From Minisyncoccota bacterium (GTDB taxonomy: Bacteria > Patescibacteriota > Minisyncoccia > Moranbacterales > UBA2206), in the NCBI GenBank assembly GCA_031291955.1, contig JARLIA010000014.1:666-64665 (forward strand): a stretch of DNA of 64,000 bases. Direction: 5' to 3'. Of this stretch, positions 578 to 64,000 are shown piece after piece (positions within the stretch are counted from its first letter, which is position 1; each line of letters starts with the position of its first letter). A program made the translations under genes and the position numbers. The notes below the pieces were generated by a model. That model searched no databases. It had not been told where the DNA came from and saw only the letters and a list, made by a program, of their open reading frames with translations.

Positions 578-584
578 AGACAAT

Positions 585-718
585 TTACAATTATCAATTT
601 TCAATTTTCAATCAATTTTTAAATTTTCAATTTTTAAATTTTCAAACCAGCATTGGAAATTGAAAATTAAATCATTGAAAATTCATTGTAAATTGAAAAT
701 TGTAAATTGAAAATTTTT
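585..718. repeat. AT-rich imperfect inverted-repeat element; left arm carries (AATTTTCAAT)n, right arm carries (ATTGAAAATT)n
   Basis: Tandem ttttcaat units occur on one side and attgaaaat units on the other, centred near position 655. The element sits in the ftsW-murG intergenic region. Confidence 0.6.
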
Positions 719-756
719 TATCTTATCAGATTAATAAAACACTCTTATAAATAAAC

Positions 757-11000: not shown

Positions 11001-11758
11001 GCAACAGTCAGGCCGGAAGAGCCGGTGATATCGCCCGTCGACTCATTGGCCCATTTATTGGAACTGTTCATAACCAAAACATCGCCCGCGGCCGGGTTGG
11101 AGATATCAGTGTCAGTAAGAGCCGAGAGAGTGGTCACGCCGCCGGAGCCGACTATTTCCGACCAGCCGGTGTTGGTAGCGGTGCCGGAAGTTTTAATGTA
11201 AAGCTTGTCATTGGTCGAATCGATAGCCATATCTCCCACCGACCCGGTCTGGACGCCATTGGGATCGCCAGTGCCCTGATAGACACTGGTGCCATTGACA
11301 GCATCGGCGTTAAAAGCGTAGGCGGCCGCACCGATCCGTTGTCTCGGAGACATCTCAACATCGGTGCCAACAGTGATGCCGGCGTAGTAAGTGTCCTGGG
11401 AAAAATCCACCGTCATCGTGTTGCCGGATCCCGAACCGAGGAGCACCGTAAAATTACCATCTTTGACAGCGACCGCATTGCTGTTAGCAGTAGTGTAATT
11501 GCCTGTCCAGACCGGCGTGCCGCCGGTGGCAGTGGTGTAAATTTTAAACACCATGTCATAATTGCCGTCAGTCGCGATAGCTCCACTGAAAGATTTTAGA
11601 ACACCGAAGTAGGTCAGTTCCTTGTTAATACCGGAAGCGGCTTTCACGTTATGGAAAACAAAAAGACCTCCCAAGAGAATCAGGGAAATCAAAAGATATC
11701 TGAAAAGTTTCGAATTCCGCGGTTTAATTAAGAGAGAGGGTAGGCTTGGGAATTTCAT
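8048..11758 (-). CDS. Giant secreted protein with tail-fibre-like repeats and a pectate-lyase-fold (right-handed beta-helix) depolymerase-like domain
   Basis: It has an N-terminal signal/TM. Tail-fibre-type repeats (VGIGTTSPGSQLSV, LGIGTTNPQAALEV) and the beta-helix signature YPEWFGAKGDDSTDDFAALQAA are present. Three Cys-rich repeats of the form CTA(A/P)GVPFA(C/W)CTG(N/S)GTGTC also occur. Confidence 0.6.
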   Translation of the reverse strand: MKFPSLPSLLIKPRNSKLFRYLLISLILLGGLFVFHNVKAASGINKELTYFGVLKSFSGAIATDGNYDMVFKIYTTATGGTPVWTGNYTTANSNAVAVKDGNFTVLLGSGSGNTMTVDFSQDTYYAGITVGTDVEMSPRQRIGAAAYAFNADAVNGTSVYQGTGDPNGVQTGSVGDMAIDSTNDKLYIKTSGTATNTGWSEIVGSGGVTTLSALTDTDISNPAAGDVLVMNSSNKWANESTGDITGSSGLTVAGGSNSILGGGVTISLNNGAITASKLDQALSLGSGQTLSAGSGTLTANALISGTYGISISGNAATATSATSATNATNATTATTAGSLSGTLPFSQLGNPTQNTTLSMGSNKAGLTFGASTGSNDLFSLSDTTGNSGTGYLMNITTNTGSLLNPLHISAGGGMEGLTVNSSGQVGIGTTSPGSQLSVVGGATFGSLYASQLMADGNVAIQGNLGIGTTNPQAALEVNGNAQFDGSVKIGGTYITANTLAQLTADANFAGTVYLTAPVTLTGDLALTCDLRPMQGATITTTGHTLSMSIPTAGRYQIFAGTGTVTFSNGGTVYPEWFGAKGDDSTDDFAALQAAGNSLVNVGGTLLGDVSKTYKDNEYIVYTNINNLTIKDLALDCVNLISTGNNACTAAAAPYGCCTGYHAGTCGPPYTALMISGTVTTTTTTVTGPLDVTNTFVPTTTLTLNVANSTGFAPGDMLEIISTQPWGGCGTGNYVTSELSSIASVGNNTITLKTGLRTDYTISAGSGYVMTLTRIIPIENPVLDNVKITGAGSGQRQSAVGIRYANSPIIMDSKSTNCDVGGFDFNWTDHGLMTNNEVYNCADTTYPAGYPYSLSNGNNWATIENSKGINVRNGITSAGYELDWNPTIKGCSFSGALPPLNGGQAINSHRNSVNMIVDGNHVENIQEGIVLSGIGTQIVNNVVTGNWTTNGSGYGIALLDWCLGTNYAINTNARTQISNNYVSGTRGIATSTSNGQCTAPGVPFACCTGNGTGTCASYGVNITGNTVIGQTINGITADYGIDVTTGQTNISGNNVSGFTTDLFFPGTPPSSTWKTGMMVNNMIEGASQGYGILDNANGAGLTNATNAGYVKSSNNATLVLNGTFYNWTAHDNWWDLTGVNTTTDCSASCTAAGVPFAWCTGSGTGTCYRKVAIVLSPTHSPQIIKGSIEATQAVATLPQIPYNDYLLGWVEIPNGYAGGSLAGFVFHNLTGMFQQIP

Positions 11759-12134: not shown

Positions 12135-12485
12135 TTAAGCTTGGTACTGCGTAGTCGCCGCGGAAGAGCTCCATGCTGCCAGAGCCGCCACGATGATACC
12201 CAGGATTATGTCATTCCAAAGCGAAGAGACATTAACATAGCCCAAGAAAAACGGAGAGATGATCAACCAGAGACCCAGGATCACATTGATCCAACTTAGC
12301 CAACCGGAGGTGGTCGGCGTGAAGAGCCGGATAAGCGCCAAGATTCCAACGATGATTCCGATAGTGATGTCATTAGAAGCGGCGGAGGTATGAGAGTAAT
12401 TCAAAACATACGGCGCGACAATTAGCCAGATCGCGGCCAAAACGTTGAGTCCGCTGGCGGTCATAGCTTGTTCCCTGTTTGCCAT
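12135..12485 (-). CDS. Small 4-TM membrane protein, SPW-repeat-like
   Basis: It is hydrophobic with two repeats containing the motifs VAPYVLNY and IISPFFLGY. A perfect SD (AAGGAGGTG) lies upstream. Confidence 0.4.
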   Translation of the reverse strand: MANREQAMTASGLNVLAAIWLIVAPYVLNYSHTSAASNDITIGIIVGILALIRLFTPTTSGWLSWINVILGLWLIISPFFLGYVNVSSLWNDIILGIIVAALAAWSSSAATTQYQA

Positions 12486-12607: not shown

Positions 12608-15600
12608 TTATTTCAATCCGGCCATGACCACCACCGTAGCTTTCCTTTCGAACTTCCCCCACTTGACCAGACGGCCTTTCAAGGCCGTGACAACCGCCTT
12701 GATAGCCACGTAATACATAAGCTGGCGATAATAGAAACGCTGGAGCGGCAACCAAAACAGCAGTCGCCAATCTTCTTTGTGTTCAAGGAAAAACGGGATG
12801 GCCGCCGTAACCAGATCGACCAGCAGGAAGAATATATAGAAAATAAGAAATTTCTTGAAAGCGTAAAGCGGAGAAATGTCGCCGGCCGGATGAAAATAGG
12901 TCTGCCAAGCTCCCCAGAAAAGCGTAATGACCATCATTAGATCCATGAGAGGCGAGACGAGAGGAAAGAAAATCTGGAAGATAAAGATATTTGGAATGCC
13001 AAGAAAGCCCAGCGCATTGTATTCCTTTTTCACAGCCAGGTCCTTGTGTTTCCAGGCAGTTTGGAACATCCCATACATCCAACGGAAACGCTGCTTGATA
13101 AAATTTTTAGTGGAATCAGGCGCTTCGGTATAAGCAATGGCTTCGTCGTCATAGGCAACCTGATGCCCCTGACGGATAATGCTAAACGTCAGATCTGCAT
13201 CTTCCGCCAAAGTGTCCTCGGAAAATCCTCCAGCCTCCAAGATAGCGCTTCGCCGCCAAGCACCGACCGCTCCGGGCACCACCGTAATGCAATTAAGCGC
13301 TTCAAAAGCCCGCCGATCCAGGTTTTGACTGGTGATATATTCCAGCGCCTGCCAACGCGTGAGAATATTTATCCGGTTCCCCACCTTGGCGTTGCCAGCC
13401 ACCGCCGCCACTCTCCGGTCCAGAAAGCAGCGCACCAGCTTTTCGATCGTATCCGATCGGAAAACCGTATCCGCGTCGAGAGTCACAATTATTTCCGCTT
13501 TGGTCATCGCGATGCCGAAATTGAGCGCTGATGATTTCCCGCCATTTTCTTTCCTGAAGATTTTGACCCAGCCGTTTTTCCCGAAATTATTTTCTAACAC
13601 CGCCCAAGTGCCGTCCGTTGATCCATCGTCAACCACGATAATATTGAAATTCGGATAAGTCGATCGCAAAATGGAATCAACCGTCTTGACAACAACTTTT
13701 TCTTCATTGTAAGCGGGAATGATGACGCTAACCGAGGGTTTGTAGTGGACGGTTCGGGAAAGTTTCCGCCAAGCACCCCTCCGGGAATGAGTCCACTGGG
13801 CAATCGCCAGAAGTCCGATAAAAATGAACCGAGCCGTTCCCAGAATGATTCCAACCTTAAACATCAGCAGCATAAATTGATTGAATCCGGAAGCGACCTG
13901 GACCGTTATGTCGTTGGCATAAGCGATAGCTCTTTCCTCGAACGTAATTTTCGGCATCACACTGTCTCTCGAAATCCCGAGCAAATCGGAAACCGGGACA
14001 ATCTGAAATCCCGCCGCCCGCAATCCCTCGATTATTTTCGGCAAAGCTTGGACTGTTTCTTCACGGTTGCCGCCGCCGTCATGGAGCAAAACGATGTTTC
14101 CCTGTCCGTTCTTGGCGGCCGTAAGAACCCGATTGACAATCTGAGAAACGCCGGGACGTGTCCAATCAGATGGATCAATATGCATCGAAACGGTGTAATA
14201 TCCAAAATTACTGGAAGACAATGGCTTCACCTGATCGGGCGTGGTCGGTTCAATATCTTCGGCGTAAGGCGGGCGAAAAAGCAAGGTTTTGTGTCCGGTG
14301 ATCGCTTCGATGACCCGCTGGGTGGCGCCTACTTCAAAAACAAACTGGGCGCCGGTTATCTTGGAAATATCTGGATGAGTGTAAGTATGATTGCCAATTT
14401 CATTGCCGTTGACATATTCCTCTCGGACTATATCCGGACTGAAATTGGCGTTGACGCCTATTACGAAAAAGGTGGCCGAAGCATTCTCTTTCTTTAGAAC
14501 GTCCAAGATTTGAGGGGTATATTTATTGTCCGGGCCGTCATCAAAAGTCAAGGCGATTTTTTTACTGCCCGTCCCCCAGCGATTGATTACGTAGGGAGAT
14601 GGGTAGCTCATGATCTGAGTTTTTTTTATGAGTCCCGAAGCGGAATCATAGTTTATTTGGCGCCAACCGCCCTGGGGCGTTTCAGTCACCCGCAAAATCT
14701 CACCCTGACCCTGATAACTGATGTCATAACCATATTGCATATTGGATAACGCTTGGGCGGCGGAAGCGTCCAGATTTTTGTCATTTATAAAATCATTCCA
14801 GACGGTCGGATCTTCCGCTCCGAGCCGCCAAAGAGCGAACCCCGCCGGAGCGCCCGACCGTTCGGCGGCTACCATCTGGTCGTAAACAGAAACACCATCT
14901 AAAAACCAGACATGATGAAGAATATTGTTGGCGTCGGTATAATCAAAAGTCGGATTAAGCGACTGACTGTCGAGATTCACCGCAGCGTTCGCTTTTTTAG
15001 CTTCCTGGATCGCCTGCTCGAAAGTGAGATCAATTCCCGAACCCGAGGGAGCGGGGTTGTCTCCAGACCAGTCATAGCCATAGTTCCCCAGAGAAATAAT
15101 GAATTTTTTGGCTGAAACCTCGGAAAATCTGTTCGCAATTTCCGCCTCAAACCAAGGCTGGGAAGCGATCGGCCCGGGTCCGGTATCATAAACATCATGT
15201 TCGTCATATGCCATCAGGATCAAATAATCGGCGTTCTGACTAAGCGCCTTGTAATTGAATGACGAGTCATCCAGGGGCACATTCATGGTCACCTCCAGTC
15301 CCAGCGGATGGAATTTTTGATAAAGTTCCTGCATGAACAACACCAAATCGGGCTGATCCTGATTTGACACATTCTCAAAATCAATTGAAATTCCGGCAAA
15401 TTTATTCTGCTGGACGTAAGTTAAAAGACTGTCCGCTGTTTTGGTTCGCAAGGCCGGGTTTTCCAACATCGCGGATAGGCGCCCGCCGTCAAAGGCCTGA
15501 GTCTGATTGTTGAAATTATCGATAAGAGGCGTAATGCGCAAGCTGGGACGATTGGCTTGGATATAACCCCAGACATCCGATTGGTAAGACTGGTTGTAAG

Positions 15601-33246: not shown

Positions 33247-33429
33247 TTATTTATATTTACGCACCCCTTTGAATTTTTCACCATTGGATTTTTGATCCAT
33301 AAATAAATGAGTGTCTGTATCTATTTTGACCCATCTTTTAATTTTAGGATTAAAAACCTGCTCTCTATTTTTAACTTCCCCTCTTCGCGCGTTATCTCCG
33401 AATGGTTTATTTTTCGCCATATCCATCAC
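33247..33429 (-). CDS. Small basic hypothetical protein (60 aa) overlapping the hsdS 3' end
   Basis: The ORF is present but has no assignable family. Confidence 0.3.
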   Translation of the reverse strand: MMDMAKNKPFGDNARRGEVKNREQVFNPKIKRWVKIDTDTHLFMDQKSNGEKFKGVRKYK

Positions 33430-34831
33430 CCCCTTTCTCTATAAATTCTTCAACCTTTCTTTTTGCTTCCTCTAATAATTCTTTTGATTTTTTCCGCGCT
33501 TCGTATGACTGAATCACAAGTTCAGTGATTTTTTTCTGGATTTCTTTTGGTAGAATTGGAATCAAAACATTTTTGATCTGCTGCGGTTTCCAGTGCGCAA
33601 TAACTGATCCGCCAGCATCACGCTCAGCTTGCATTTGACCAATTTGAGAATTCAAACACAGTGCCAAATATTCTGCCTCAACTTCTTTGCTTTTCAACTT
33701 CAGGCGCAACGTTCCGCCCGACACAATTCCTTGAATATCTTTTTTCAAAACAAAAGCAATTCCCGGGGTTGCATCTTTTGTTAGCAATATTTCACCTTTT
33801 TTTGGTTCAAAATCATCTTTCAATTTTTCATAAAGCTTATCACTTAGATATTTTTGATTGCTTTCCGTGATTCCGAATTTTGTCATGCTACTAACCCGGA
33901 TAAAAATCTTACCTTCTTCTTGATATTCTTCCGCCCCAACTTCAATTCCCTTTTTCATCGAAACTAAATCGCCCAACTTGTGCACATTATGTTTTGCAAC
34001 CCTATCTTCTATTATCTTATATTTCGGCTGAAAATATTCCGCATCGATTCGATGTGCAATTTCGATATCGGAAAGATTTATGATTGATGATAACTTTTCT
34101 ACATTATCAAAACCGTCCAATTCCAATTCTCCCAAAAGTAAGTTTTCGGCTTGTTGATATTGCGTTTTAGCTTTCTCAAATTCATCCAAGCCAGCCAACA
34201 CTATCATTTTTATTTTTTGTTGAGCTTCAAGATTAACTTCGGGAAGAATTATTTTTTCAAGGCTATACAAATTCATGTGTCCTTGAACGCCTCCACTTGA
34301 TCCTCTATCGATCTGAAATTTTCCATATTTTGAATTCAGAAAAGCGGCTAAATATTCTGGCAATAGATTCTCTTTTGGTTTTATCAAAATAATATCCGCG
34401 GAATTTGCAACGGGATGATTCTCTGTAACGACACTAGCATTGCCAATTGACCCACTTCTGGCAAGCAAGACAAACCCCGGATAAACCTGGCTCTTTTTCA
34501 GTTTTTTATGAAATTCTTCGTCAATATAAACAATACCATTTTCAAAATCTGTAACAAATTCATCAACGTTTTGTGTTCTCAAAAGTGGAACTCCATCATC
34601 GCAAAAATGGCTCGCCATAGAAGACACAAAACCAACATCAATCTTTGGCGCCATCTCCTCCAATGTTAGTAACTCAAATTTTTTAAGATTTTTTTCCAAA
34701 TCCAAATATTCCGGCTGATAATATTCAGCATCCATCCGCATCGCGCCTTCGAGTTGAGATTTTTGAATTATGGAAAAATTAGTCATAAAATTTTTGAAAT
34801 ATTCCCCACAAATGAACGTATTAATAGGCAT
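33407..34831 (-). CDS. hsdS: Restriction-modification specificity (S) subunit, HsdS-like with two target-recognition domains
   Basis: The conserved N-terminal block RMDAEYYQPEY and the central repeat RIDAEYFQPKY are present. The true start may be the internal Met (MTNFS...). Confidence 0.8.
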   Translation of the reverse strand: MPINTFICGEYFKNFMTNFSIIQKSQLEGAMRMDAEYYQPEYLDLEKNLKKFELLTLEEMAPKIDVGFVSSMASHFCDDGVPLLRTQNVDEFVTDFENGIVYIDEEFHKKLKKSQVYPGFVLLARSGSIGNASVVTENHPVANSADIILIKPKENLLPEYLAAFLNSKYGKFQIDRGSSGGVQGHMNLYSLEKIILPEVNLEAQQKIKMIVLAGLDEFEKAKTQYQQAENLLLGELELDGFDNVEKLSSIINLSDIEIAHRIDAEYFQPKYKIIEDRVAKHNVHKLGDLVSMKKGIEVGAEEYQEEGKIFIRVSSMTKFGITESNQKYLSDKLYEKLKDDFEPKKGEILLTKDATPGIAFVLKKDIQGIVSGGTLRLKLKSKEVEAEYLALCLNSQIGQMQAERDAGGSVIAHWKPQQIKNVLIPILPKEIQKKITELVIQSYEARKKSKELLEEAKRKVEEFIEKGGDGYGEK

Positions 34832-34950
34832 AATATCAAGCTGTGGATAACTCCTTGCATAATCATACAGCTATGGTATTATGAGCTTGGTACTTGTAAG
34901 GGCTTTGGCCCTCTCACGGTTAAAACGTATAAACCGTAGCAAGTGCCAAA

Positions 34951-35442
34951 TCAATCATCCTCCATATTTCCTGCATGCAGGATTTTTTTATTGTTAAATT
35001 TGTTACCTGAATTTTTTTGATTGTTTTTCCAAAAAGGAATTAGGCTCCAAAAAAATTTATTTCCACCTTCAATTTCTTTAACTATTATTTTTATTCTCGC
35101 ACCATTTATTATAGCAACAAACCCATAATAACTAACTTCAACCATTTTATATTCCCATCTAGAATTAATTTTTTGTTGTTCAAACTTCCTTGTTTCATAA
35201 AATTCTTGTAAGGTATTTGACTTTTCCAATATATGAGGAGCGAGTTTTAACAACTTCAATCTTATATATTGATCACTTTTTATTCGAGCCTTGTTTTTAT
35301 TTTTGAATTTCAAATGTTCCAATCCCTTCGTATTAAAAGAAATCTTTCCACCCAAATAAGGACAATGAATTTGGCCTATTGTTTTGTAATAATTTTCGGC
35401 CTCTTCTTTTACCTTTAAAAATTTTATTTGATCAATCTCCAT
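34951..35442 (-). CDS. Hypothetical 163-aa protein between the RM methyltransferase and the S subunit
   Basis: Its start overlaps the stop of the upstream gene. No motif was recognised. Confidence 0.45.
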   Translation of the reverse strand: MEIDQIKFLKVKEEAENYYKTIGQIHCPYLGGKISFNTKGLEHLKFKNKNKARIKSDQYIRLKLLKLAPHILEKSNTLQEFYETRKFEQQKINSRWEYKMVEVSYYGFVAIINGARIKIIVKEIEGGNKFFWSLIPFWKNNQKNSGNKFNNKKILHAGNMEDD

Positions 35443-37355
35443 TATTTTTTCATAAACTTCAAAAACTCCTCCGCAATTTCGTCTAGATCGTGATCAATAA
35501 TTTTCTTTCCGCCGGCATCATACATAACATTCCCCTCGCTGTCTTTTTTATAGATATAATCCCCTGAATTGTCTTTGCCGCCTTTCTTGGAAACTGCCAT
35601 AAAAATCGGATAATCTTCGGGGATTTTTTCATCCTCATTCCATTTTTGCAAAAACAGAACTGATGTTTTTGTGCCGGTGTGCGGTTTGAAGGTGTTGTCA
35701 TGCAGTCCCACCACTGCCAACAGACGCGCCTTGCTCAAAACAAACCGCCGCACATATTCCATCTGCGTATTGTTCAAAACTCCTTGCGGCAAAACGATTG
35801 CCATCCTTCCGCCGGGCTTGAGAAAATTAAGATCGCGTTCAATGAACAAAACGTCGCGTGAAACTTTGTTTTGATGCTTGGATGTTTTTTCAAAATTTTT
35901 GTCATGTTTAAATCCAAGATCATAACGATTCAAAATCACACCTTTGATCTCTCCAGCAAATGGCGGATTGGTCAGCACGATGTCAAAATTAAAGTCAGTC
36001 ATTTTTTCCTGGTTTCTTCGGTTCTCATCAGAATCCTTGAATGTTCGCAAAAACGGTCGGAATTTCGCATGCGCTTGTTCATTCCAAACTTCACTGTCCA
36101 GCGAGTTAGCATTGGTCACATTTGTTTTACCATCGCCTGCAATGAGCATCATAGCTTTTCCAATTTTCACTGAGCGCGGATCAAAATCAATTCCGTACAA
36201 ATGTTTTTCCGCATAATCTTTTTGCTTTGCTTTGTAATCATCTTCGAAATTTTTCTTGTTTATTTCTTTGTCCCACACATATTGCATAGCATGCAACAAA
36301 AATCCGCAACTGCCCGCAGCAGTATCAATGATGAAATCTTTTGAAGTCGGCGCCAGCATTTTCACCGCCATGTCAATCACATGACGCGGCGTGAAATATT
36401 GGCCTTTTTCGCCTTTAGCATCCAAGTTAATCAGATATTCAAAGGCATCATCGATCACCTGCAGATTAGAACCAAAAAGGCGATATTTTTGCAAAAGAGA
36501 AATTGCCGGCACGATGGCATTTTCCGGAATTTCTATTTCGTCATTCGACTTGAAAACATCACGCCACTGATTTTTGGAATCCTCAAAAAGCCGCTGAATA
36601 TTGTTTAGATTTTCCTTGTTAGAAGCGCCGGCAATCACCCGAAATCTGCGATTTTCATTTCTAGGCGTTTCGATTTCATCATACAGCTTGGCATAAATAA
36701 GTTTGAAAATTTCATCAAACGAATCCACGCCGCTGTTGGCCAAAACAACTTCTTGCAAATCATAAATGAGTTGTTGCAAATTAGGAATTTCATCAAGATC
36801 ACTATATACGATTTTCTTTGAACGTACATCATCAACCGTTTCGTTAAATTTGGGAATTTCCGGCAAGTCCTCAAAAAGATTTGGGTCGGTTCGTAAAATA
36901 TTATTTTGAAGTTTTCCGTCTGTCAAAACGAGAATTGGCGCACCGGTCGCATTGGCGTAGCTTTTCAATTGCCCCAGACCATCTTTCACGTCGGGTTTTT
37001 TCACTTCAACCACAAGATAGGGAGTTTTGCCGTCTTCACGATAAATCACAATGTCCGCACGTTTTTTCCCAATCTCTCGCCCAAATTGCACATCTACTTC
37101 CACATCCATCCGGTCAAGTGGATATTTATAAAAATTTAATAATTTATAAATCATGAGTTGACGAACTATCTCCTCCGGCTTAGCTACTAACTTTTTATTT
37201 CTTTTTAAACATGGCAAATAAAACTTTCCTTCTTTTTCAAAAAGATCCAAGACTTCTTCAATTTTAATTCCCTCAAAAACAGAAAGTCCATATTGCATAT
37301 CCGGATTGCGAAAAATTTTCCCCAAAATTTCACTTGTCTTTTTTTGATCCGCCAT
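35442..37355 (-). CDS. Fused restriction-modification enzyme: N-terminal HsdR-N-like PD-(D/E)xK nuclease domain plus gamma-class N6-adenine DNA methyltransferase (BcgI-A-like / Type IIB-IIG)
   Basis: The N-terminus shows RADIVIY...PYLVVEVKKP...APILVLTDG, matching the HsdR N-terminal fold. The MTase motif DIVLTNPPFAG is present. At 637 aa there is no helicase and no separate hsdR. Confidence 0.7.
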   Translation of the reverse strand: MADQKKTSEILGKIFRNPDMQYGLSVFEGIKIEEVLDLFEKEGKFYLPCLKRNKKLVAKPEEIVRQLMIYKLLNFYKYPLDRMDVEVDVQFGREIGKKRADIVIYREDGKTPYLVVEVKKPDVKDGLGQLKSYANATGAPILVLTDGKLQNNILRTDPNLFEDLPEIPKFNETVDDVRSKKIVYSDLDEIPNLQQLIYDLQEVVLANSGVDSFDEIFKLIYAKLYDEIETPRNENRRFRVIAGASNKENLNNIQRLFEDSKNQWRDVFKSNDEIEIPENAIVPAISLLQKYRLFGSNLQVIDDAFEYLINLDAKGEKGQYFTPRHVIDMAVKMLAPTSKDFIIDTAAGSCGFLLHAMQYVWDKEINKKNFEDDYKAKQKDYAEKHLYGIDFDPRSVKIGKAMMLIAGDGKTNVTNANSLDSEVWNEQAHAKFRPFLRTFKDSDENRRNQEKMTDFNFDIVLTNPPFAGEIKGVILNRYDLGFKHDKNFEKTSKHQNKVSRDVLFIERDLNFLKPGGRMAIVLPQGVLNNTQMEYVRRFVLSKARLLAVVGLHDNTFKPHTGTKTSVLFLQKWNEDEKIPEDYPIFMAVSKKGGKDNSGDYIYKKDSEGNVMYDAGGKKIIDHDLDEIAEEFLKFMKK

Positions 37356-37356
37356 A

Positions 37357-37998
37357 TTATTTGTTTATTTTAGAAAGATTTAGAATTACCTTGCCTTGAA
37401 ATTGAACTTCGCCGGGAATAATTATCATTTTTTCATAAGCCGGATTTTCCGGTTGCAAATATCTTTTTCCGCCATCAGCGACAAAGCGCTTTACAGTCGT
37501 GCCCGCATCCGTTCGCGCAATCACAATATCACCGCTTTTATATTCTTTTGATTCTTTGATAAGCAGACTATCACCATCATCGATTCCGGCATTAATCATA
37601 GAATCTCCAGAAATTTGAATAACAAAAACTCTATCTTTTGATTCATTTATTTTTTCATTTTTTAAAACTTTTTCAGATATTGGGAAAAAGGTGAATGCAT
37701 TAGCAAAAGAATCGAGATATGATCCGCCGGCGCTAACGCCAGCCATTTTAATCAAAGGATCTCTTCCAATTTCCTTATAACCCAAAGGCAAAATTCTTAT
37801 CCCTCTCGCCTGACCATCTTCTCTTTTTATATATTCCTTTCTTTCAAGCGTATCTAAAAAGTTTATAACCGACTGGTTCGAAGATACGCCCAGCTCTTCC
37901 TTAAAATCAGAAATAGACGGCGGAAAGCCGGAACTTTCCAAAAATGTGTAAATAAATTCTAAAACTTTTTTTTGTTTTGGGGTAAGTTTAAAACTCAT
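37357..37998 (-). CDS. lexA: LexA-type repressor (winged-helix plus S24 peptidase)
   Basis: A LexA-like N-terminal HTH is followed by a C-terminal S24 domain with ISGDSM (Ser) and TTVKRF (Lys). Its stop is 1 nt from the RM start codon. Confidence 0.8.
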   Translation of the reverse strand: MSFKLTPKQKKVLEFIYTFLESSGFPPSISDFKEELGVSSNQSVINFLDTLERKEYIKREDGQARGIRILPLGYKEIGRDPLIKMAGVSAGGSYLDSFANAFTFFPISEKVLKNEKINESKDRVFVIQISGDSMINAGIDDGDSLLIKESKEYKSGDIVIARTDAGTTVKRFVADGGKRYLQPENPAYEKMIIIPGEVQFQGKVILNLSKINK

Positions 37999-42593: not shown

Positions 42594-42743
42594 TGAAAGT
42601 TATTCGCTGTTTTAAAAACAAAAAAACCGCCATTTCTATTATTGAGGAAATTTAAACATCACTTATCCATGCGTCCACTTTAAAAGGAGTCTGTCAATTT
42701 TGACAAACCCCTTTTTTCGCGTCAAAGCGCGTTGTGCTTTTTC

Positions 42744-42950
42744 AGAAAAACCAGCGAGACAATTCCAAGCATTAGGAATATCGCGCCAGAAAAAAGAAGC
42801 GCGAAGCGTAAAGAACAGACATCGGCTGTCCACCCGACCAGCGGCCCAACAATAGAAAAAATGATTCTAACCGCCAAGTTTTTCACCGAAAGGACTGTCG
42901 CCCGATTTTCCGACGGGATGAGTCCGTTGATGTAGTCCAGCGTTATCGGA
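42744..42950 (-). pseudogene. Orphan 3' fragment resembling the C-terminus of an MFS transporter, with no start codon
   Basis: The frame opens right after a TGA. It encodes ...NGLIPSENRATVLSVKNLAVRIIFSIVGPLVGW...FLMLGIVSLVFL, which is a typical MFS TM12 region. Confidence 0.35.
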
Positions 42951-42954
42951 TTGT

Positions 42955-43182
42955 TTATCCCGCGCGCCGCTCAATCAGGTTAAGCTCCAGCATCTTCTCC
43001 AAATCTCTGGAAATGGTGATTCTGGTAACTTCTCCGATGCTCTTTTGGATATGCTCAAATATCTGCCCAATTGAGGCAGTTTTATTGGTTTCGATAAAGA
43101 CCAAAATAGCGTCTTGCCTTTTGTTCAGTTTATTATTGATTGCCATATTTTTTATACCATTTATATGCTCTAATTGTATCAT
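42955..43182 (-). CDS. Small winged-helix (DeoR-N-type HTH) DNA-binding protein
   Basis: The segment RQDAILVFIETNKTASIGQIFEHI...ITISRDLEKM is present. Confidence 0.5.
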   Translation of the reverse strand: MIQLEHINGIKNMAINNKLNKRQDAILVFIETNKTASIGQIFEHIQKSIGEVTRITISRDLEKMLELNLIERRAG

Positions 43183-43198
43183 TTATGATATGCAAAGT

Positions 43199-43212
43199 CA
43201 ACATAAATGTTG
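43199..43212. promoter_or_regulatory. CAACAT-AA-ATGTTG palindrome overlapping a TTGACT-17-TACAAT promoter for the HTH gene
   Basis: It is a perfect 6-2-6 inverted repeat. Confidence 0.3.
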
Positions 43213-43312
43213 TTTTATATGTAAAAATGGCTGAAATAGGCGCATTTATCCATTTTGTTCCGGGAAAGCGGAAGTATTTGGATTATTTTGATCGCTACCC
43301 CGAGAATGCAAA

Positions 43313-43345
43313 CAAAAATACCCATCAATCGGGTATCTGTATTTT
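43313..43345. terminator. Terminator hairpin
   Basis: The sequence is aaaaataccc-atcaatc-gggtat-ctgtatttttt. Confidence 0.4.
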
Positions 43346-43554
43346 TTGCTTTATATCTAAGATTAATTTTGACTTATTTTCGCTGTAAAAGAAAGAAATT
43401 GATGGCAAGAAGAGCCATCAGACTAATATAGGAAGCCTTCTGAACAAGATTGCCTCTGAATCCCTCATCAATTCCGTTATATGTAATCCAAAGAATAAAA
43501 ATGACGTTTCCCAAGAGTGCTAAAAGGCGAAGTATTTTCAGCATAGTTTATTTT

Positions 43555-43839
43555 TTATAATCCAAAACAAAAATGGCCCAAACAAGCCCAGGGCAAATCT
43601 CCATCCAGATACCATTTGTTTTGATACTTCACGATTTTGATAGTTTCTCCTGTTGCGGTCTTGCAGGTGCCGTAATTTTCAGTTTTTTCAAGAAGTTGGA
43701 CACAGCCTCTGAAAGCATAATAATTTTCAAATGTGCTGTGGGCTTTTTTCAAAGTATACAACTGATAAATTCCGAAAATAGTAACCGATACCATTATCAG
43801 AATTATAAATATTGTAATTTTTTTGTTAATTATAGCCAT
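43555..43839 (-). CDS. Small N-terminally anchored hypothetical protein
   Basis: One TM is followed by a Cys-containing domain. Confidence 0.3.
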   Translation of the reverse strand: MAIINKKITIFIILIMVSVTIFGIYQLYTLKKAHSTFENYYAFRGCVQLLEKTENYGTCKTATGETIKIVKYQNKWYLDGDLPWACLGHFCFGL

Positions 43840-43984
43840 AATAAGTTCTTGATTATTTGTGCCCCAAATATATCACAAACTACCGCTAAACAACAGTGGA
43901 GTAACGACAACCAAAAAATGCAGAAAAACTCACCCTTGAAACGAAACGTTTCCAGGGAGATATTGATTTTAGAGCACACAAAAG

Positions 43985-44036
43985 CACCCGAAAGGGTGCC
44001 CTGTTATAAAGTATCACAGTCTTTTGCGATTAGTCC
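43985..44036. repeat. Hairpin plus a 30-nt direct repeat (copy 1)
   Basis: The sequence is gcaccc-gaaa-gggtgc followed by ataaagtatcacagtcttttgcgattagtcc. Confidence 0.5.
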
Positions 44037-44044
44037 GAAAATTT

Positions 44045-44557
44045 CTAAGTCTCATTTCTATAGTGTATCGTTTCAATACTCGGACTTTCCTGATTATGCA
44101 TTCCATATACTAAAAAGTATAAATTTGATATTCCAGGTAGTATAATAGCAAGTATAATTAGACCTTTAGGAAGCTTGTAGTGGTATATCAGATAACCTCC
44201 CAAAACAAGCTGAATTAGCCAGAATAAATAACGCACACCTAAATCTTGATGAAATAGCATACCCAAACTGATTGCTGGAATAAAAGTAATCCAAAGCCAT
44301 ATCAACGTACCCTCAGAAAGAGATTTGAGAAATATTCTGTTATTCTTGAACCCTAAAAAACCTAAAAATGTAAATAAACCCAAGAAAATCAGATTCAAAA
44401 TAATCACAACTGAGAAAAGCACTATCCAATACAAAGATGTTCCAATATCATTCCGACCTTTAGAAATTGATATGGCATTAACCCCTATTACTTCAATAAC
44501 CACTAAAAATAATAAGGCAAGAGTATATGCGATTAAAATTCTTCTAAATTTATTCAT
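44045..44557 (-). CDS. Hypothetical polytopic membrane protein
   Basis: It has 5 TMs and is flanked by the direct repeats. Confidence 0.4.
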   Translation of the reverse strand: MNKFRRILIAYTLALLFLVVIEVIGVNAISISKGRNDIGTSLYWIVLFSVVIILNLIFLGLFTFLGFLGFKNNRIFLKSLSEGTLIWLWITFIPAISLGMLFHQDLGVRYLFWLIQLVLGGYLIYHYKLPKGLIILAIILPGISNLYFLVYGMHNQESPSIETIHYRNET

Positions 44558-44635
44558 TTTTTTATTTTATTTTTACCCATTTCAAATATACCACAAATTG
44601 CTGCTTTCTGAAAGCCGAGTATCCCAAAAACGCAA

Positions 44636-44692
44636 AAAACACCATTCAAGGTGTTTTCATTTTATAAGTATCACAGTCTTTTGCGATTAGTC
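44636..44692. repeat. Hairpin plus the 30-nt direct repeat (copy 2)
   Basis: The sequence is aacacc-attcaa-ggtgtt followed by ataagtatcacagtcttttgcgattagtcc. Confidence 0.5.
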
Positions 44693-45002
44693 CAAGAGTC
44701 TACCAGTGTGTGTACAAACACACCTACCGATTTTTTGGCTCGGCTAAGCCTAGCTGTTTGCTACCGAAGTAGCATCGACCAGCGAGATAACATTCACACT
44801 CCTCAACATCTAACTTGCATTAGTATGTCTTAACGAGTAGTGCTCTCGAATGTTACCAAAATCTCCCTAGAAAGGAGGTGATCCATCCACAGCTTCCGCT
44901 ACGGATGCCTTGTTACGACTTCACCCTTATCATCGATCCCACCCTGGTCCCTGCTTTGAGACAGGGCCTTCCGGTGTTACCGACTCTCTTGGTGTGACGG
45001 GC

Positions 45003-45865
45003 GATTATCTTCGTGAAACTACAAATTGATGTTCCCATCGTGCCTGCGGATTTCCCGCACACGACGAGCTCTAATGCATTTTTTGCTTAAGGATGTAGAT
45101 TTTCCTTAAACCTGATTCTTTCAAATGATCTTTTTTCATGACCATTTCAAGAATCCGGCAAAAAATTTCAAAGTCACCGTTCTTTGAGCGTAATCTCAAA
45201 GAATTACTTTTGAAAAATGGAATGATAATTTTTTCCAGATCGTTTCGATTAGCTACTTCAAAGCGATAACAATCTTGATGATTGGCCCGTTTATCTTTTT
45301 GAAAATAAACGTTGCCGCAACCGAAGAATTTCTTGAGTTCATAGAGGATTTCTTTATCTTTCTCTATGAGCTTCAAGAAAAATCTTGGCTCAACCTTTGT
45401 TCGCCGCTGAACTTTTTTCTTTGAATCAGGATCTTTCACGTAAGCCGTAAAGCTTCCCTCTCCATCGACTAAGCCAACGATATAATCTGGATTCAATTCC
45501 ATATGCATTGAGTGAATCCTTCCTCGCCGATGAGGCGAGTACTACGATTCAGCTGACTTCTTACGCTGCGTAAGTTTCATTATATGATCATATTATAACA
45601 CATAATCATAACAACGTAAGATCTCCCGGGGTCATTTAAGTTTCCGTTCCTGGCATTCCGATTGGCGTTTTTGCTTGCATTTTCCCCACGCTCACCACCT
45701 GTCCATGGGTCAATGCCGCCTTTTTCGTATCGGACTGCCATTTGCCTCCAGATCCTTCGCCGTGTTTCTCGCGAAACACGACTATCTTTCGGCTACGCTC
45801 TGATTGGGTTTCAGAGGAGAAGATTCTAACTTCTTGGAAATTTAAACTGCCCGGCGCTTTTATTG
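45003..45865 (-). mobile_element. Group-I-type intron in 16S, inserted near E. coli position 1400
   Basis: Exon sequence breaks between CTTGTACTCAC and CGCCCGTCACACC. The intron contains an in-frame LAGLIDADG ORF. Confidence 0.7.
45071..45508 (-). CDS. LAGLIDADG homing endonuclease (intron-encoded)
   Basis: The LVDGEGSF LAGLIDADG motif is present. The protein is 145 aa and runs in the sense orientation of the rRNA. Confidence 0.8.
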   Translation of the reverse strand: MHMELNPDYIVGLVDGEGSFTAYVKDPDSKKKVQRRTKVEPRFFLKLIEKDKEILYELKKFFGCGNVYFQKDKRANHQDCYRFEVANRNDLEKIIIPFFKSNSLRLRSKNGDFEIFCRILEMVMKKDHLKESGLRKIYILKQKMH

Positions 45866-46008
45866 TGAGTACAAGATCCGAGAACGTATTCACCGCGCCA
45901 TGGCTGATGCGCGATTACTAGTGATTCCAGCTTCATGAGGTCGAGTTGCAGACCTCAATCCGAACTGAGACCGGTTTTTTGGGATTAGCTCCGTCTTGCG
46001 ACTTGGCA

Positions 46009-46040
<32 letters not shown>

Positions 46041-46099
46041 AGCCCAGGGCGTCAAAGGGCCACGCTGATCTGACGTCATCCCCGCCTTCCTCCCAGAAC

Positions 46100-46261
46100 G
46101 AAACGCGCTTTGCTAAGCGCTCAATTTCTAATTTTCAATTTCTAATTTCTAAACAATGTCTAATTTCTCAATGATTAAATTTCTAAATTGAAAATTAATT
46201 CATTGAAAATTGTTTGAAAATTGAGAATTGAAAATTGAGAATTGAGCACGAAGTGCGTTTT
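46100..46261 (-). repeat. Intervening sequence / expansion in the 16S helix-40 loop, composed of AT-rich inverted repeats
   Basis: It is flanked by the h40 stem cccagaac/gttctggg and the inner stem gctcaatttct/agaattgagc. Its arms are (aatttctaat)n and (attgaaaatt)n. Confidence 0.6.
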
Positions 46262-47309
46262 GTTCTGGGCAGTCTCGTGTGACACTGTAACACACGATAG
46301 GGGTTGCGCTCGTTTCCTGACTTAACAGAACACCTTACGGCACGAGCTGACGACGACCGTGCAACGCCTGCTATGCACCCTCGAAGGCTTGTACATTTCT
46401 GTACAATGCAGCATAGTTTCAAGCCCTGGTGAGGTTCCTCGCTTGTCGTCGAATTAAACCACATGCTCCACCACTTGTGCGGATCCCCGTCTATTCCTTT
46501 GAGTTTTAAGCTTGCGCTCGTACTTCCCAGGCGGCAGACTTAACGCGTTAGCTACGACACCGAGAGGGTCGATTCTCCCGATACCTAGTCTGCATCGTTT
46601 AGGGTGTGGACTACTGGGGTATCTAATCCCATTCGCTACCCACACTTTCGCGTCTCAGCGTCAGGCGAGCCCCAACCAGATGCCTTCGCCTTTGGTATTC
46701 CGTATGATATCAACGCATTTCACTGCTACACCATACGTTCTACTGGTCTCTTGCTCCCTCTAGCTTTGCCGTTTCAAACGCAGTTTCCGAGTTAAGCTCG
46801 GAGATTTGACGTCTGACTAACAAAGCCGCCTACACGCGCTTTACGCCCAATAAATCCGGATAACGCTTGAGGTCTCTGTATTACCGCTGCTGCTGGCACA
46901 GAGTTAGCAACCTCTTATTCCTATGGTACCATCATTACATTTTTCCCATAGAAAAGAAGTTTACGACCCAAGGGCCTTCATCCTTCACGCGGCGTCGCTC
47001 CATCAGGCTTTCGCCCATTGTGGAATATTCTCGACTGCAGCCACCCGTAGGTGTTTGGGCAGTGTCTCAGTCCCAATGTTGGGGGTCACGCTCTCACGCC
47101 CCCTACCCGTCATAGCCTTGGTAGTCCTTTACACTACCAACAAGCTGATAGGACACAGGCCGCTCCTGAAGCGATAAATCTTTACTCCGTAGAGATTATC
47201 GTGTATTATCTTGGATTTCTCCAAGTTATTCACGACTTCAGGGTACGTTCCTATGCATTACTAACCCGTTTGCCGTGGGCCTAAACCCACTCGACTTGCA
47301 TGCCTTATC

Positions 47310-47349
<40 letters not shown>

Positions 47350-47669
47350 AAAAAAGTTATAAAGAATATAAATTCCTTGATTTTGAATAGACTCTAATTT
47401 GTCTCGAAATAAATCGAGACGAGGACTAATCGCAAAAAATTGTGATTATTTCGTCTCTCTAAATCAAAAGGTAGAGATTTAGAGAAACTATTCACTTGTC
47501 AAAGTTCTTTCCGAGTCTTTCGTTCTGACGAACAAAAAACACATCTTTGTGAGCAACAGTAATTACACACAAAGATGCATCTTTGTTCCACAGTGTTTTT
47601 AAGGGTTGTTTGAGTTATTATTTAACGCCGTTTTTTGACTTAAATAATTATACGCAACTCGTACTGTCT

Positions 47670-51274: not shown

Positions 51275-51280
51275 ATTATT

Positions 51281-51335
51281 TTTTAAATTGAAAATTGATT
51301 AAATGAAAATTTATTGATCATTGAAAAATTATTCC
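51281..51335. repeat. AT-rich attgaaaat repeat cluster upstream of serS
   Basis: The sequence is aaattgaaaattgattaaatgaaaatttattgatcattgaaaaatt. Confidence 0.45.
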
Positions 51336-51455
51336 CCCAAGGGGAAGCTGACAAACCCCAAATTATGGCTAAATATTCCTTATTCATGGCAAATCCAATA
51401 TACCATAACAGGAAAAATAAAAAAAGGCCGGCGTCATTCCGCCGGCAGCGACCAT

Positions 51456-51662
51456 TTATGATTCCCTCCGCTTTTTCAGTTTATAAATAAGTTCTTCGCC
51501 AACCCCTTGGGCCATTCCGGCGCTGGATGACATATCATAATGATACTCACCAGGTCTCATCTCGACACAAACAGTGCCGTCAGCTTTCCAGTAAATCCCA
51601 AATTCTTCCGAACTGGAATTCATCCTATGCCATCCTTCTTTCGTCTCTTTGCTCCGTTCCAT
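51456..51662 (-). CDS. Small hypothetical protein (68 aa)
   Basis: Support comes only from the ORF itself. Confidence 0.25.
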   Translation of the reverse strand: MERSKETKEGWHRMNSSSEEFGIYWKADGTVCVEMRPGEYHYDMSSSAGMAQGVGEELIYKLKKRRES

Positions 51663-51759
51663 TTTTCACCCTCCTTCGCAAAAATAAAAATTCAGAAAGG
51701 TTTTGAAAAAAGATCAAAAAGGAACTATTATAAAACAAGAAATCGGCTACTTTATTATG

Positions 51760-61106: not shown

Positions 61107-61232
61107 TCCAAGAAAATTTTAAAGGCTAAATTTAAAATTTTAAATCAAATCTGAATGATTAAATTTAAAATTAAAACATTTAGTAATTTAAAATTTATTT
61201 TAAATTTCAAATTTCAAATTGAAAATTATCCG
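61107..61232. repeat. AT-rich palindrome-rich spacer ending in ATTGAAAATTATCC
   Basis: It contains the 18-nt perfect palindrome aatttaaaattttaaatt and the near-palindrome aatttaaaatttattttaaatt. Confidence 0.5.
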
Positions 61233-63548: not shown

Positions 63549-63579
63549 ATTTGTTTTAATTTAATAATTGAAAATTATC

Positions 63580-64000
63580 CTAGTGTATCCGCCCCATCCC
63601 CAAAATTTCAATGATCACGCCCATCATAGCCATAACCCAGGTAAATATCCAGGCGCGCATGGTCACCTTCGTCTCCGGCCAACCCTTGGCTTCAAAGTGG
63701 TGATGAAGCGGCGCGGCCAGAAAAACTTTCTTGCCGAAATAGCGTTTACTGATCAGCTGGATGACAACCGAACCGGACTCCAGGATATAAAGAAGAGTAA
63801 TTATAAAAAGCGGAATGACAGAATTAGTGAGCATCGCAATCACTCCAAGTGTCGCCCCCATCGAAACCGCTCCCGTGTCGCCCATAAAGAAACGAGCCGG
63901 ATAAATATTAAACCAAAGAAACGCCAAAAGCGCCCCGGAAAGCGCCGCGCAAAAAGCGGCCAGGTCCATTTTGTTCTGCAAGAACGAAATAACAGAGAAT
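63580..64000 (-). CDS. mraY: Phospho-N-acetylmuramoyl-pentapeptide transferase MraY, C-terminal part; N-terminus lies beyond the window
   Basis: The segment MGDTGAVSMGATLG...LAAPLHHHFE is present. Confidence 0.75.
   Translation of the reverse strand, partial: FSVISFLQNKMDLAAFCAALSGALLAFLWFNIYPARFFMGDTGAVSMGATLGVIAMLTNSVIPLFIITLLYILESGSVVIQLISKRYFGKKVFLAAPLHHHFEAKGWPETKVTMRAWIFTWVMAMMGVIIEILGMGRIH

Follow-up and report, generated by a model that had tools for sequence, protein, structure and literature searches.

Introduction

How does a long palindrome come to sit inside a ribosomal RNA gene, and what becomes of it once that gene is transcribed? These questions are raised by a 64,000-nucleotide stretch of DNA (contig JARLIA010000014.1, positions 666 to 64,665; hereafter the window, meaning the whole stretch that was analyzed), in which the tip of helix 40 (h40) of the 16S rRNA gene is occupied by an AT-rich hairpin insertion. 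The host of this gene belongs to Candidatus Moranbacteria, in the candidate phyla radiation (CPR, or Patescibacteria). CPR bacteria are well known for having interruptions in their rRNA genes; the focus has been on introns with homing endonucleases, while short insertions lacking an open reading frame (ORF) stayed uncharacterized (PMC11270868). An earlier note, made from the letters of the window alone, had proposed that the h40 insertion is a mobile or expandable palindromic element, built of repeats also found in intergenic DNA, that landed in the rRNA gene. Our comparisons place the insertion in a family of ORF-less palindromes, termed here heptad hairpins, which occur in related Moranbacteria at the apical loops of four helices that tolerate insertions (h6, h10, h17 and h40) and in some spacers between co-directional genes. 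On balance we lean towards the view that these hairpins resemble the intervening sequences (IVSs) of bacterial rRNA, that they are copied between helix tips, and that they are cut from pre-16S RNA without religation.

Results

An intact helix 40 carries a long hairpin in place of its loop

In the Rfam model SSU_rRNA_bacteria, h40 corresponds to positions 1149-1170, and two model loop positions face 165 nt in the window. The two strands of the stem, CCCAGAAC/GTTCTGGG, are found at 46269-46262 and 46099-46092, and the insertion is therefore 46100-46261. Both the alignment and the sequence itself thus bear out the earlier description of an intact h40 stem whose loop is replaced by about 160 nt; the length is 162 nt, and the small-subunit covariance alignment places the insertion in h40. 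It is also, as had been stated, the second insertion in this 16S gene (the first occupies 45004-45864) and free of ORFs, none of at least 60 amino acids being present inside it. As RNA, the insert is one long imperfect hairpin of 25% GC with a folding energy of -68.1 kcal/mol, versus -32.2 +/- 3.8 in dinucleotide shuffles (z = -9.4), so that the long hairpin of the earlier description is recovered as a single fold. The inner stem that had been drawn, gctcaatt(t)ct/agaattgagc, is present with a one-base bulge. A different period had to be assigned to the arms: what had been read as tandem units of about 10 nt (aatttctaat/attgaaaatt) has a period of 7, or of 14 as alternating heptad pairs, according to Tandem Repeats Finder (TRF). 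The two arrays, as read on the plus strand, consist of AATTTCT x4.3 (46123-46152) and TTGAGAA x4.7 (46214-46246).

The insert can be divided into a base module next to the rRNA, which comprises an extension of h40 (P1) and two small GC hairpins (P2 and P4), and a main arm (P3). Together these form a four-way junction. Within P3 the blocks run in the order four 7-nt units, non-repetitive core, apex, mirrored core and four 7-nt units. An Rfam cmscan of the insert at E <= 10 returned no intron family and nothing above threshold; under this permissive setting only generic plant miRNA-precursor hairpin models appeared, far below their thresholds. P4 has a terminator-like pattern, but one such pattern was found where 0.6 were expected, which is not significant. 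Scans for promoter and terminator consensus sequences over this hairpin and over the intergenic hairpin described below did not rise above shuffles.

Orthologous inserts combine a conserved base with a changeable arm

Relatives were gathered by a pattern scan of species-representative genomes followed by blastn, and a metagenome scan added 24 loci; their loci or contigs are labeled with L-numbers. The closest, both by 16S and by FtsW homologues, are metagenome-assembled genomes of Candidatus Moranbacteria/Moraniibacteriota. Measured between AACGAGCGCAACCC and GGGGAUGACG, the h39-h40 stretch falls into three length classes: most bacteria have 52-55 nt, many Moranbacteria have 82-94 nt (a 12-bp h40 with a small tip), and the window and many relatives have 145-243 nt. 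Homologous inserts at the same site are found in independent assemblies (L122, L134, L136, L130, L137, L138, L102 and others). The window insert aligns to the h40 of L122 with a score of 161 (z = 23) and with the same blocks throughout, and we regard it as orthologous to the insert of L122 and L134. That the element landed in this genome, as had been proposed, is thus not simply so: the orthologous insert is present in lineages 92-94% identical in 16S. A recent landing is disfavored also by the conserved rRNA-proximal base module, which has no counterpart in the intergenic copy.

Two types of base were recognized. In type A (window, L122/L134, L136, L130 and L137), a 4-bp extension of h40 is followed by P2, the long arm P3 and P4, with P2 being GCAC-UUC-GUGC or GCGC-UUC-GCGC and P4 being GCGCUU-AGCA-AAGCGC or GCGUUU-AGCR-AAACGC. 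In type B, CTTTG...CAAAG palindromes flank an arm that is A/C-rich on one side versus G/U-rich on the other. Across the type A junction 93% of the alignment cells pair, and four pairs show compensatory change (A-U to G-C in P2, C-G to U-A in P4); in this small sample of six sequences, covariation is 0.155 versus 0.105 and was reached by 4 of 500 shuffles. When the 3′ partners were slid by 1-3 columns, pairing fell to 25-48%. A further observation concerns L138/L139, whose base module looks flipped: reverse-complementing the 3′ end of L138, AGCACGAAGTGCGTTAT, gives the 5′ end of the window type. The flipped alignment of L138 scores 46 versus 32 in the same orientation; this support is modest and we do not rely on it, but it suggests inversion or insertion in either orientation.

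The arm changes much faster. The orthologous h40 inserts of L122 and L134, which come from different samples, differ by exactly one AGAAATT unit, and the h17 inserts of L133 and L143 differ in length by 14 nt, so that the term "expandable" in the earlier note was apt. L122 and L134 additionally carry in the 3′ arm (alignment columns 114-133) a 19-nt GC-rich hairpin, CCTGCCTGTCGGCAGGCAG, that the window lacks and that is best read as an insertion within the insertion. L140 and L143 have one and the same h40 base with unrelated arms, and the arm of L143 resembles that of its own h6 insert. The long arm is missing altogether in L055/L126, L045/L127 and L128, and present in L122, L130, L137, L102 and others (91-94% 16S identity). 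An equally long, conserved h40 of unrelated sequence in all close relatives, which the earlier note had considered as a contrary outcome, is therefore not what the relatives have. In a neighbor-joining tree of the 16S core (1113 columns; rough and without support values), the short-h40 genomes L055/L126 and L045 nest among long-h40 ones, and types A and B are mixed; the distribution accordingly looks patchy.

One intergenic hairpin is a paralogue of the helix 40 arm

Repeats like those of the insert had been reported at four intergenic sites of the window. We compared the insert with the spacers by local alignment, scored against a second-order Markov null, and one of these sites stood out. 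It lies between two minus-strand genes, ftsW (757-1875) and murG (whose end is at 577), and this spacer holds an inverted repeat with 65-nt arms, a period of 7 and about nine units per arm (TRF). Its alignment to the insert scores 104, where the null gives 34 +/- 6.5 with a maximum of 65; after correction for the best of 32 spacers the comparison is 104 versus 39.5 +/- 6.2 (z = 10.3). The closest relative, L146 (FtsW 92% identical), carries the orthologous hairpin, and its spacer (11138-11316) matches the window insert with z = 10.8, corrected for the best of all spacers. Inserts of other genomes found no match among the spacers of the window, with z of 3 or less. Because z is about 10 for the spacers of the window and L146 and at most 3 for the inserts of others, we take the h40 arm and the ftsW-murG hairpin to be homologous paralogues rather than converged AT-rich sequence. 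In RNA sense, the P3 arm, the h40 arms of L122 and L136 and the two ftsW-murG hairpins are collinear, with a mean column identity of 77% over the five sequences, and share over both arms the order four heptads, non-repetitive TTTTCAATGAWTTAATTTTCAATTT, apex, mirrored core and four heptads.

The other three sites fared less well. The spacer that includes 51281-51335 (51275-51759) is marginal (score 51 versus a null of 26.5 with a maximum of 48), whereas 61107-61232 (aligned as 61107-61225; score 60, null maximum 63) and 63549-63580 (aligned as 63549-63579; score 30, null maximum 34-38) are not significant. Word counts point to the same locus. The 10-mer ATTGAAAATT occurs 14 times in the window where 1.16 are expected, and 11 of the 14 fall in the insert and in 585-718. 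The number of 9-mers shared by insert and window is 220 versus 151 in composition-matched shuffles whose maximum is 305, and is uninformative; only clustered, collinear similarity counts. Given this near-shuffle sharing and the single significant site, the statement that the same repeats occur in intergenic DNA holds for one locus. What remains of the proposed palindromic family shared with intergenic DNA is thus the statistically significant ftsW-murG hairpin, the three other sites being weak at best.

More distant relatives differ at this spacer. In L148/L149 (FtsW 77% identical) the ftsW-murG hairpin is built of a different heptad, TGTCAAA, and in L150 the spacer is only 24 nt long, without a hairpin. 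We also surveyed the long hairpins of four contigs, which lie at 581-715 and 46123-46246 in the window, 9964-10035 in L146, 11105-11249 in L148, and 12229-12327 and 16584-16703 in L150. Nearly all of them have a 7-nt arm period, with differing units (CAATTTT, TGTCAAA, CAATGAA, AATTTTT and TACGAAT).

Related hairpins occupy several helix tips of single 16S genes

Relatives at 89-94% core identity carry ORF-less inserts of 70-220 nt at four sites of the 16S core, namely positions 71 (h6), 176 (h10), 417 (h17) and 1094 (h40). Within single genes, inserts in different helices can be strikingly alike: those in h6 and h17 of L045 are 97% identical over 113 nt (z = 38), those in h10 and h40 of L124 are 90% identical over 79 nt (z = 20), and those in h17 and h40 of L138 align with z = 23. 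Between different genomes such likeness across helices is rare (z > 5 in only 3% of 230 pairs), one case being the h17 insert of L138 and the h40 insert of L065 (z = 34), which are of the same element type. Near-identical copies in different helices of one gene favor duplicative spread and are direct evidence of hairpin copying from one helix tip to another; the word "mobile" in the earlier note finds its support here. The h40 insert of the window is one of these 7-base-repeat hairpins, which relatives carry both at various 16S helix tips and in intergenic DNA, and it therefore has the look of copy-and-paste palindromic DNA and not of an isolated oddity.

The window insert as a whole is an inverted repeat, and terminal inverted repeats were also seen in relatives, namely TGGTCGTTTCTC...GAGAAGCGACCA in L045 and TGTGTGCTTCACT...AGTGAGGCACACA in L142. 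At the bases of h6 and h17 elements (L045, L142, L143 and L122) we noted a 5′ motif YTCAC-N3-4-GTTCR and a 3′ motif CGARC-GAA-GYGAG, whose sides are complementary to each other and can each also form a hairpin of their own; this pair could be a recognition or processing signal. The conserved TTCACT..GTTC / GAAC..AGTGAG motif at these bases might be read as a bulge-helix-bulge or a kink-turn. The family appears to be constrained as RNA. Of 30 non-redundant inserts, 22 give a more stable fold in rRNA sense than in antisense (mean difference over all 30 -6.4 kcal/mol, Wilcoxon p = 0.002), and the sense strand has more G-U pairs; this bias suggests selection on the RNA hairpin. Taken together, the comparisons describe elements whose inheritance is vertical at short distances and whose 7-nt units come and go; they acquire nested hairpins, can be lost or replaced, and are sometimes copied to other hairpin tips.

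The 16S gene and its surroundings

Coordinates of the features are collected in Table 1. The first insertion of the 16S gene has a group-II D1D4 match at 45516-45590 that is weak and near threshold (33.8 bits, gathering score 35), and it agrees with the CPR site type 16IS9 of PMC11270868. It also misleads the alignment. The full-length Rfam extent, 45813-47355, seemed complete and was rejected as a gene boundary: its 3′ end is a forced alignment, in which the 104-nt h44 of the model is squeezed onto 17 nt, and the end is misplaced at 45813 because the first insertion interrupts the gene. The real h44/h45 lie 860 nt further on, and together with the 16S 3′ end, GGAUCACCUCCUUUCU, they occupy 45003 to about 44869.

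Table 1. Features discussed in the text, with window coordinates.
Feature	Position	Strand	Evidence or remark
16S rRNA gene, both insertions included	44869..47355	minus	Rfam SSU_rRNA_bacteria, 1308 bits
Insertion at the h40 apex, ORF-less, 162 nt	46100..46261	minus	Rfam alignment and hairpin fold
Helix 40, 5′ strand, RNA CCCAGAAC	46262..46269	minus	16S alignment; invariant in all type A relatives
Helix 40, 3′ strand, RNA GUUCUGGG	46092..46099	minus	16S alignment, type A comparison
Base module, 5′ half	46246..46260	minus	conserved in window, L122/L134, L136, L130, L137
P1 extension AAAC; hairpin P2 GCAC-UUC-GUGC	46260-46257; 46256-46246	minus	5′ half of base module
P3, hairpin arm of about 125 nt, AT-rich	46121..46245	minus	TRF period 7; collinear alignments
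Base module, 3′ half	46101..46120	minus	conserved across type A inserts
Hairpin P4 GCGCUU-AGCA-AAGCGC; P1 extension GUUU	46120-46105; 46104-46101	minus	3′ half of base module
ftsW-murG intercistronic spacer with paralogous hairpin (about 582-722)	578..756	minus	inverted repeat, TRF, alignment
First 16S insertion, about 861 nt, group-II-intron-like, near E. coli position 1400	45004..45864	minus	16S model alignment
LAGLIDADG ORF in first insertion	45071-45508	minus	LAGLIDADG_1, E = 2.7e-17

The 16S gene is the sole rRNA gene found in the window. No 23S, 5S or tRNA gene is present anywhere in the 64 kb, and the 16S gene is therefore unlinked. The 2.3 kb downstream of it (42594-44868) hold only two ORFs, on the opposite strand, and neither has a Pfam match. 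Two public contigs, L001 (SRR23300977) and L002 (GCA_031291895.1, JARLIB010000101.1), are identical to the window over serS and its neighbors and terminate within the 5′ part of the 16S gene, upstream of h40; these ends indicate that the interrupted gene breaks short-read assemblies of the host organism. Elsewhere in the window, type I restriction-modification genes (a specificity subunit and an N6 methylase with an HsdR N-terminal domain) occupy 33407-37355 and are adjoined by lexA (37357-37998); they are unrelated to the h40 insert.

Discussion

Fate of the hairpin and competing explanations

Transcribed within pre-16S RNA, the insert would form a long perfect double-stranded RNA. A near-perfect AU-rich duplex of about 60 bp is a classic RNase III substrate, and bacterial rRNA IVSs of such shape are excised without religation. 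Removal of this type would leave the 16S RNA split in the head domain, its parts held together by the extended h40 stem. By analogy, then, the h40 insert is probably cut out of pre-16S RNA by RNase III. In CPR bacteria, rRNA insertions are reported to be removed from transcripts, and the short ORF-less ones are suggested to be RNase III intervening sequences (PMC11270868). The strongest competitor, to which we give a lower but still considerable probability, concerns the same family and differs in its outcome: the hairpin would be kept in mature 16S rRNA as an expansion segment, here in a bacterium, that sticks out from the small-subunit head. E. coli 16S rRNA tolerates engineered insertions at h39/h40, h6, h10 and h17 with functional ribosomes (PMC2441807 Table 1), the base module is conserved, with compensatory changes, and the family-wide sense-strand bias fits retained RNA as well as a processing substrate. 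Set against retention are the reported removal of CPR insertions and the RNase III substrate character of the duplex, and also the arm itself, which is hypervariable, replaceable and absent even in close relatives (L055/L126, L045/L127); these properties disfavor a ribosomal function.

The remaining explanations we rate far lower. One is that h40 merely lengthened on the spot as replication slipped and AT pressure acted, its intergenic likeness being convergence of low-complexity AT-rich repeats; this strikes us as improbable. Slippage does shift heptad number, shared 9-mers barely exceed shuffles, and of the four intergenic sites named in the earlier note, three fall short of significance. 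Against local growth stand the collinearity of the h40 arm and the ftsW-murG hairpin over both arms, with the same order of sub-blocks and a common 25-nt non-repetitive block, at z of about 10 against second-order Markov nulls corrected for all spacers, the 113-nt stretches that are 97% identical in different helices of relatives, and the exchange of arms above a base that stays as it was. A small self-splicing or otherwise catalytic intron, as with other CPR rRNA insertions, is very improbable. An intron-like insertion does lie 240 nt downstream in the same gene, but the permissive search found no intron family, with only sub-threshold miRNA-precursor models, and a single unbranched hairpin of 162 nt and 25% GC leaves no room for a catalytic core. 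Least credible of all is an assembly or chimera artifact: AT-rich palindromes are hard to assemble, and the near-identical contigs L001 and L002 stop inside the 16S gene before h40, yet inserts at the same site with the same base and core recur in many independent assemblies from different samples.

Several observations also weigh against the preferred reading, in which an IVS-like hairpin is copied between tips and cut out of pre-16S RNA. Covariation was measured on only six sequences, and the tree behind the gains and losses is rough, as stated above. Only one convincing extra copy of the insert was found in the 64-kb window, no clear intergenic copies of relatives' own inserts were found in the few kb around their 16S genes, and the motif-sharing test in a second genome (L133 inserts against L150 spacers) was weakly positive (z = 4). 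The copy in the window lacks the sense bias of its family, folding at -67.1 kcal/mol in sense versus -74.9 in antisense, with 3 G-U pairs in sense versus 8 in antisense. No target-site duplication could be read at two L045 copies, the window h40 arm or the window spacer copy. Finally, a Pfam scan of 40 window ORFs revealed no transposase, and no RNase III gene (rnc) lies in the 64-kb window.

A possible route of copying

Copying would take place at the DNA level, aimed at the hairpin or cruciform apexes of existing inverted repeats. It might proceed by template switching between extruded hairpins or by a hairpin-specific HUH/Y1 enzyme, and we hold both routes equally open. A candidate for the latter exists in relatives: a syntenic single-copy gene resembling Y1_Tnp (IS200-like/HUH) lies between murC and murB in L148 (13762-14424) and L150 (13724-14395), with scores of 27.5 and 32.9 bits, respectively, versus a Pfam gathering score of 23. 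The top NCBIfam match of these proteins, below its cutoff, is REP_Tyr_transpos (REP-associated tyrosine transposase). The gene is absent from the murC-murB locus of the closest relative, L146, and no hairpins flank it in L148 or L150. The encoded protein is a possible mobilizer of the hairpin elements. Separately, the Y1_Tnp ORF of L150 contains a palindrome (13892-13975; 42-nt arms, 81% complementary, no spacer) just N-terminal of the Pfam-matching part; here a palindrome may have been inserted in frame into a protein-coding gene.

A bolder proposal, which we consider unlikely but worth stating, is that heptad-repeat hairpins are an undescribed class of CPR mobile DNA that copies itself specifically into the apexes of hairpins already present, both at rRNA helix tips and in intercistronic stem-loops, by means of a domesticated Y1/HUH enzyme or of template switching from hairpin to hairpin. 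If so, the swappable arm would be a cassette on a conserved docking base, and the copying of heptad hairpins would be a source of rRNA expansion and fragmentation sites in CPR bacteria.

In at least one CPR clade, the short insertions form a coherent family defined by a conserved junction and a heptad-repeat arm, with rapid turnover by slippage and with clear evidence that copies pass from helix to helix as well as between rRNA genes and intergenic DNA. Of most interest are the docking base, conserved beneath a heptad arm that can be exchanged, and the demonstrable copying that links the tips of rRNA helices with a spacer. Together they offer a concrete and testable model for how bacterial rRNA gains expansion or fragmentation sites. 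The family also flags an origin of 16S length heterogeneity and of assembly breaks in CPR genomes, and heptad copy number could serve as a strain-level marker.

Comparison with known systems

Intervening sequences are found in helices 25 and 45 of 23S rRNA in Salmonella, Leptospira, Coxiella and other bacteria and in 16S rRNA of Campylobacter and Helicobacter. Like them, the h40 insert takes the place of the apical loop in a helix that is conserved yet dispensable and whose stem stays intact, and it is an extended AU-rich, ORF-less stem-loop within the range of about 100-200 nt that has no catalytic core. It is likewise sporadic among close relatives, and the rRNA gene that holds it is present once in a reduced genome (for the background, PMC11270868). 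It is unlike them in its position at 16S h40, in its arms of tandem 7-nt units, in its conserved four-way-junction base, and in having paralogues in an intercistronic spacer and, among relatives, in other helices of one gene. By analogy, bacterial rRNA IVSs are the closest functional class: the insert shows three of the four defining features, excision being the fourth. The short uncharacterized CPR insertions of PMC11270868 come from the same organism group and are similarly under 200 bp, without intron signature or ORF, and the h40 insert belongs in that category; repeat structure, within-gene paralogy and intergenic copies are not described in the available part of that source. Viewed instead as an rRNA expansion segment, the insert does have a position at which added RNA is tolerated in E. 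coli (PMC2441807 Table 1).

As DNA, the elements recall REPIN/REP sequences with their RAYT transposases (and also Correia and RPE elements). Shared features are a non-coding, hairpin-forming nature, vertical persistence, an intercistronic location, the lack of target-site duplication and a syntenic single-copy Y1_Tnp-like gene in the relatives L148 and L150. The two ends of a REPIN are inverted copies of a small palindrome around a spacer. At the ends of the window insert, P2 and P4 are each a small palindrome and roughly match one another in inverted orientation; the central arm goes far beyond the length of a REPIN spacer. Copies in rRNA helices are not a REPIN trait, copy number here appears low (one clear extragenic copy within 64 kb), no RAYT is present in the window or the equivalent region of L146, and the Y1 gene of relatives lacks flanking hairpins. 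We therefore treat a REPIN/RAYT connection as a lead only. Miniature inverted-repeat transposable elements (MITEs) derived from DDE transposons were considered and rejected: terminal inverted repeats are present, whereas neither a target-site duplication nor a cognate insertion sequence was found in the 64-kb window.

Two systems outside the CPR offer parallels in habit and in architecture. In green-algal organelle genomes, as in the mitochondrial DNA of Volvox, the intergenic DNA is filled by selfish palindromic repeats that have also invaded one rRNA-coding module, where excision versus retention is left unresolved (PMC2670323). These repeats belong to an organelle, reach massive copy number and lack the combination of heptad arm and conserved base, so that we would see in them an ecological analogue of the heptad hairpins. 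Nearest in architecture, to judge by analogy, is the P6b element of the Nostoc tRNA-Leu(UAA) group I intron (PMC4476775). It differs in host RNA and phylum, its sequence is unrelated, and no paralogues at other RNA helices are described there. Yet it too is a hairpin at the periphery of a structured RNA, both of its arms are built on 7-nt motifs, its length varies by 7-nt units, side stem-loops have been inserted into it, and its repeat classes have been replaced repeatedly, as appears to be the case for the arm on helix 40.

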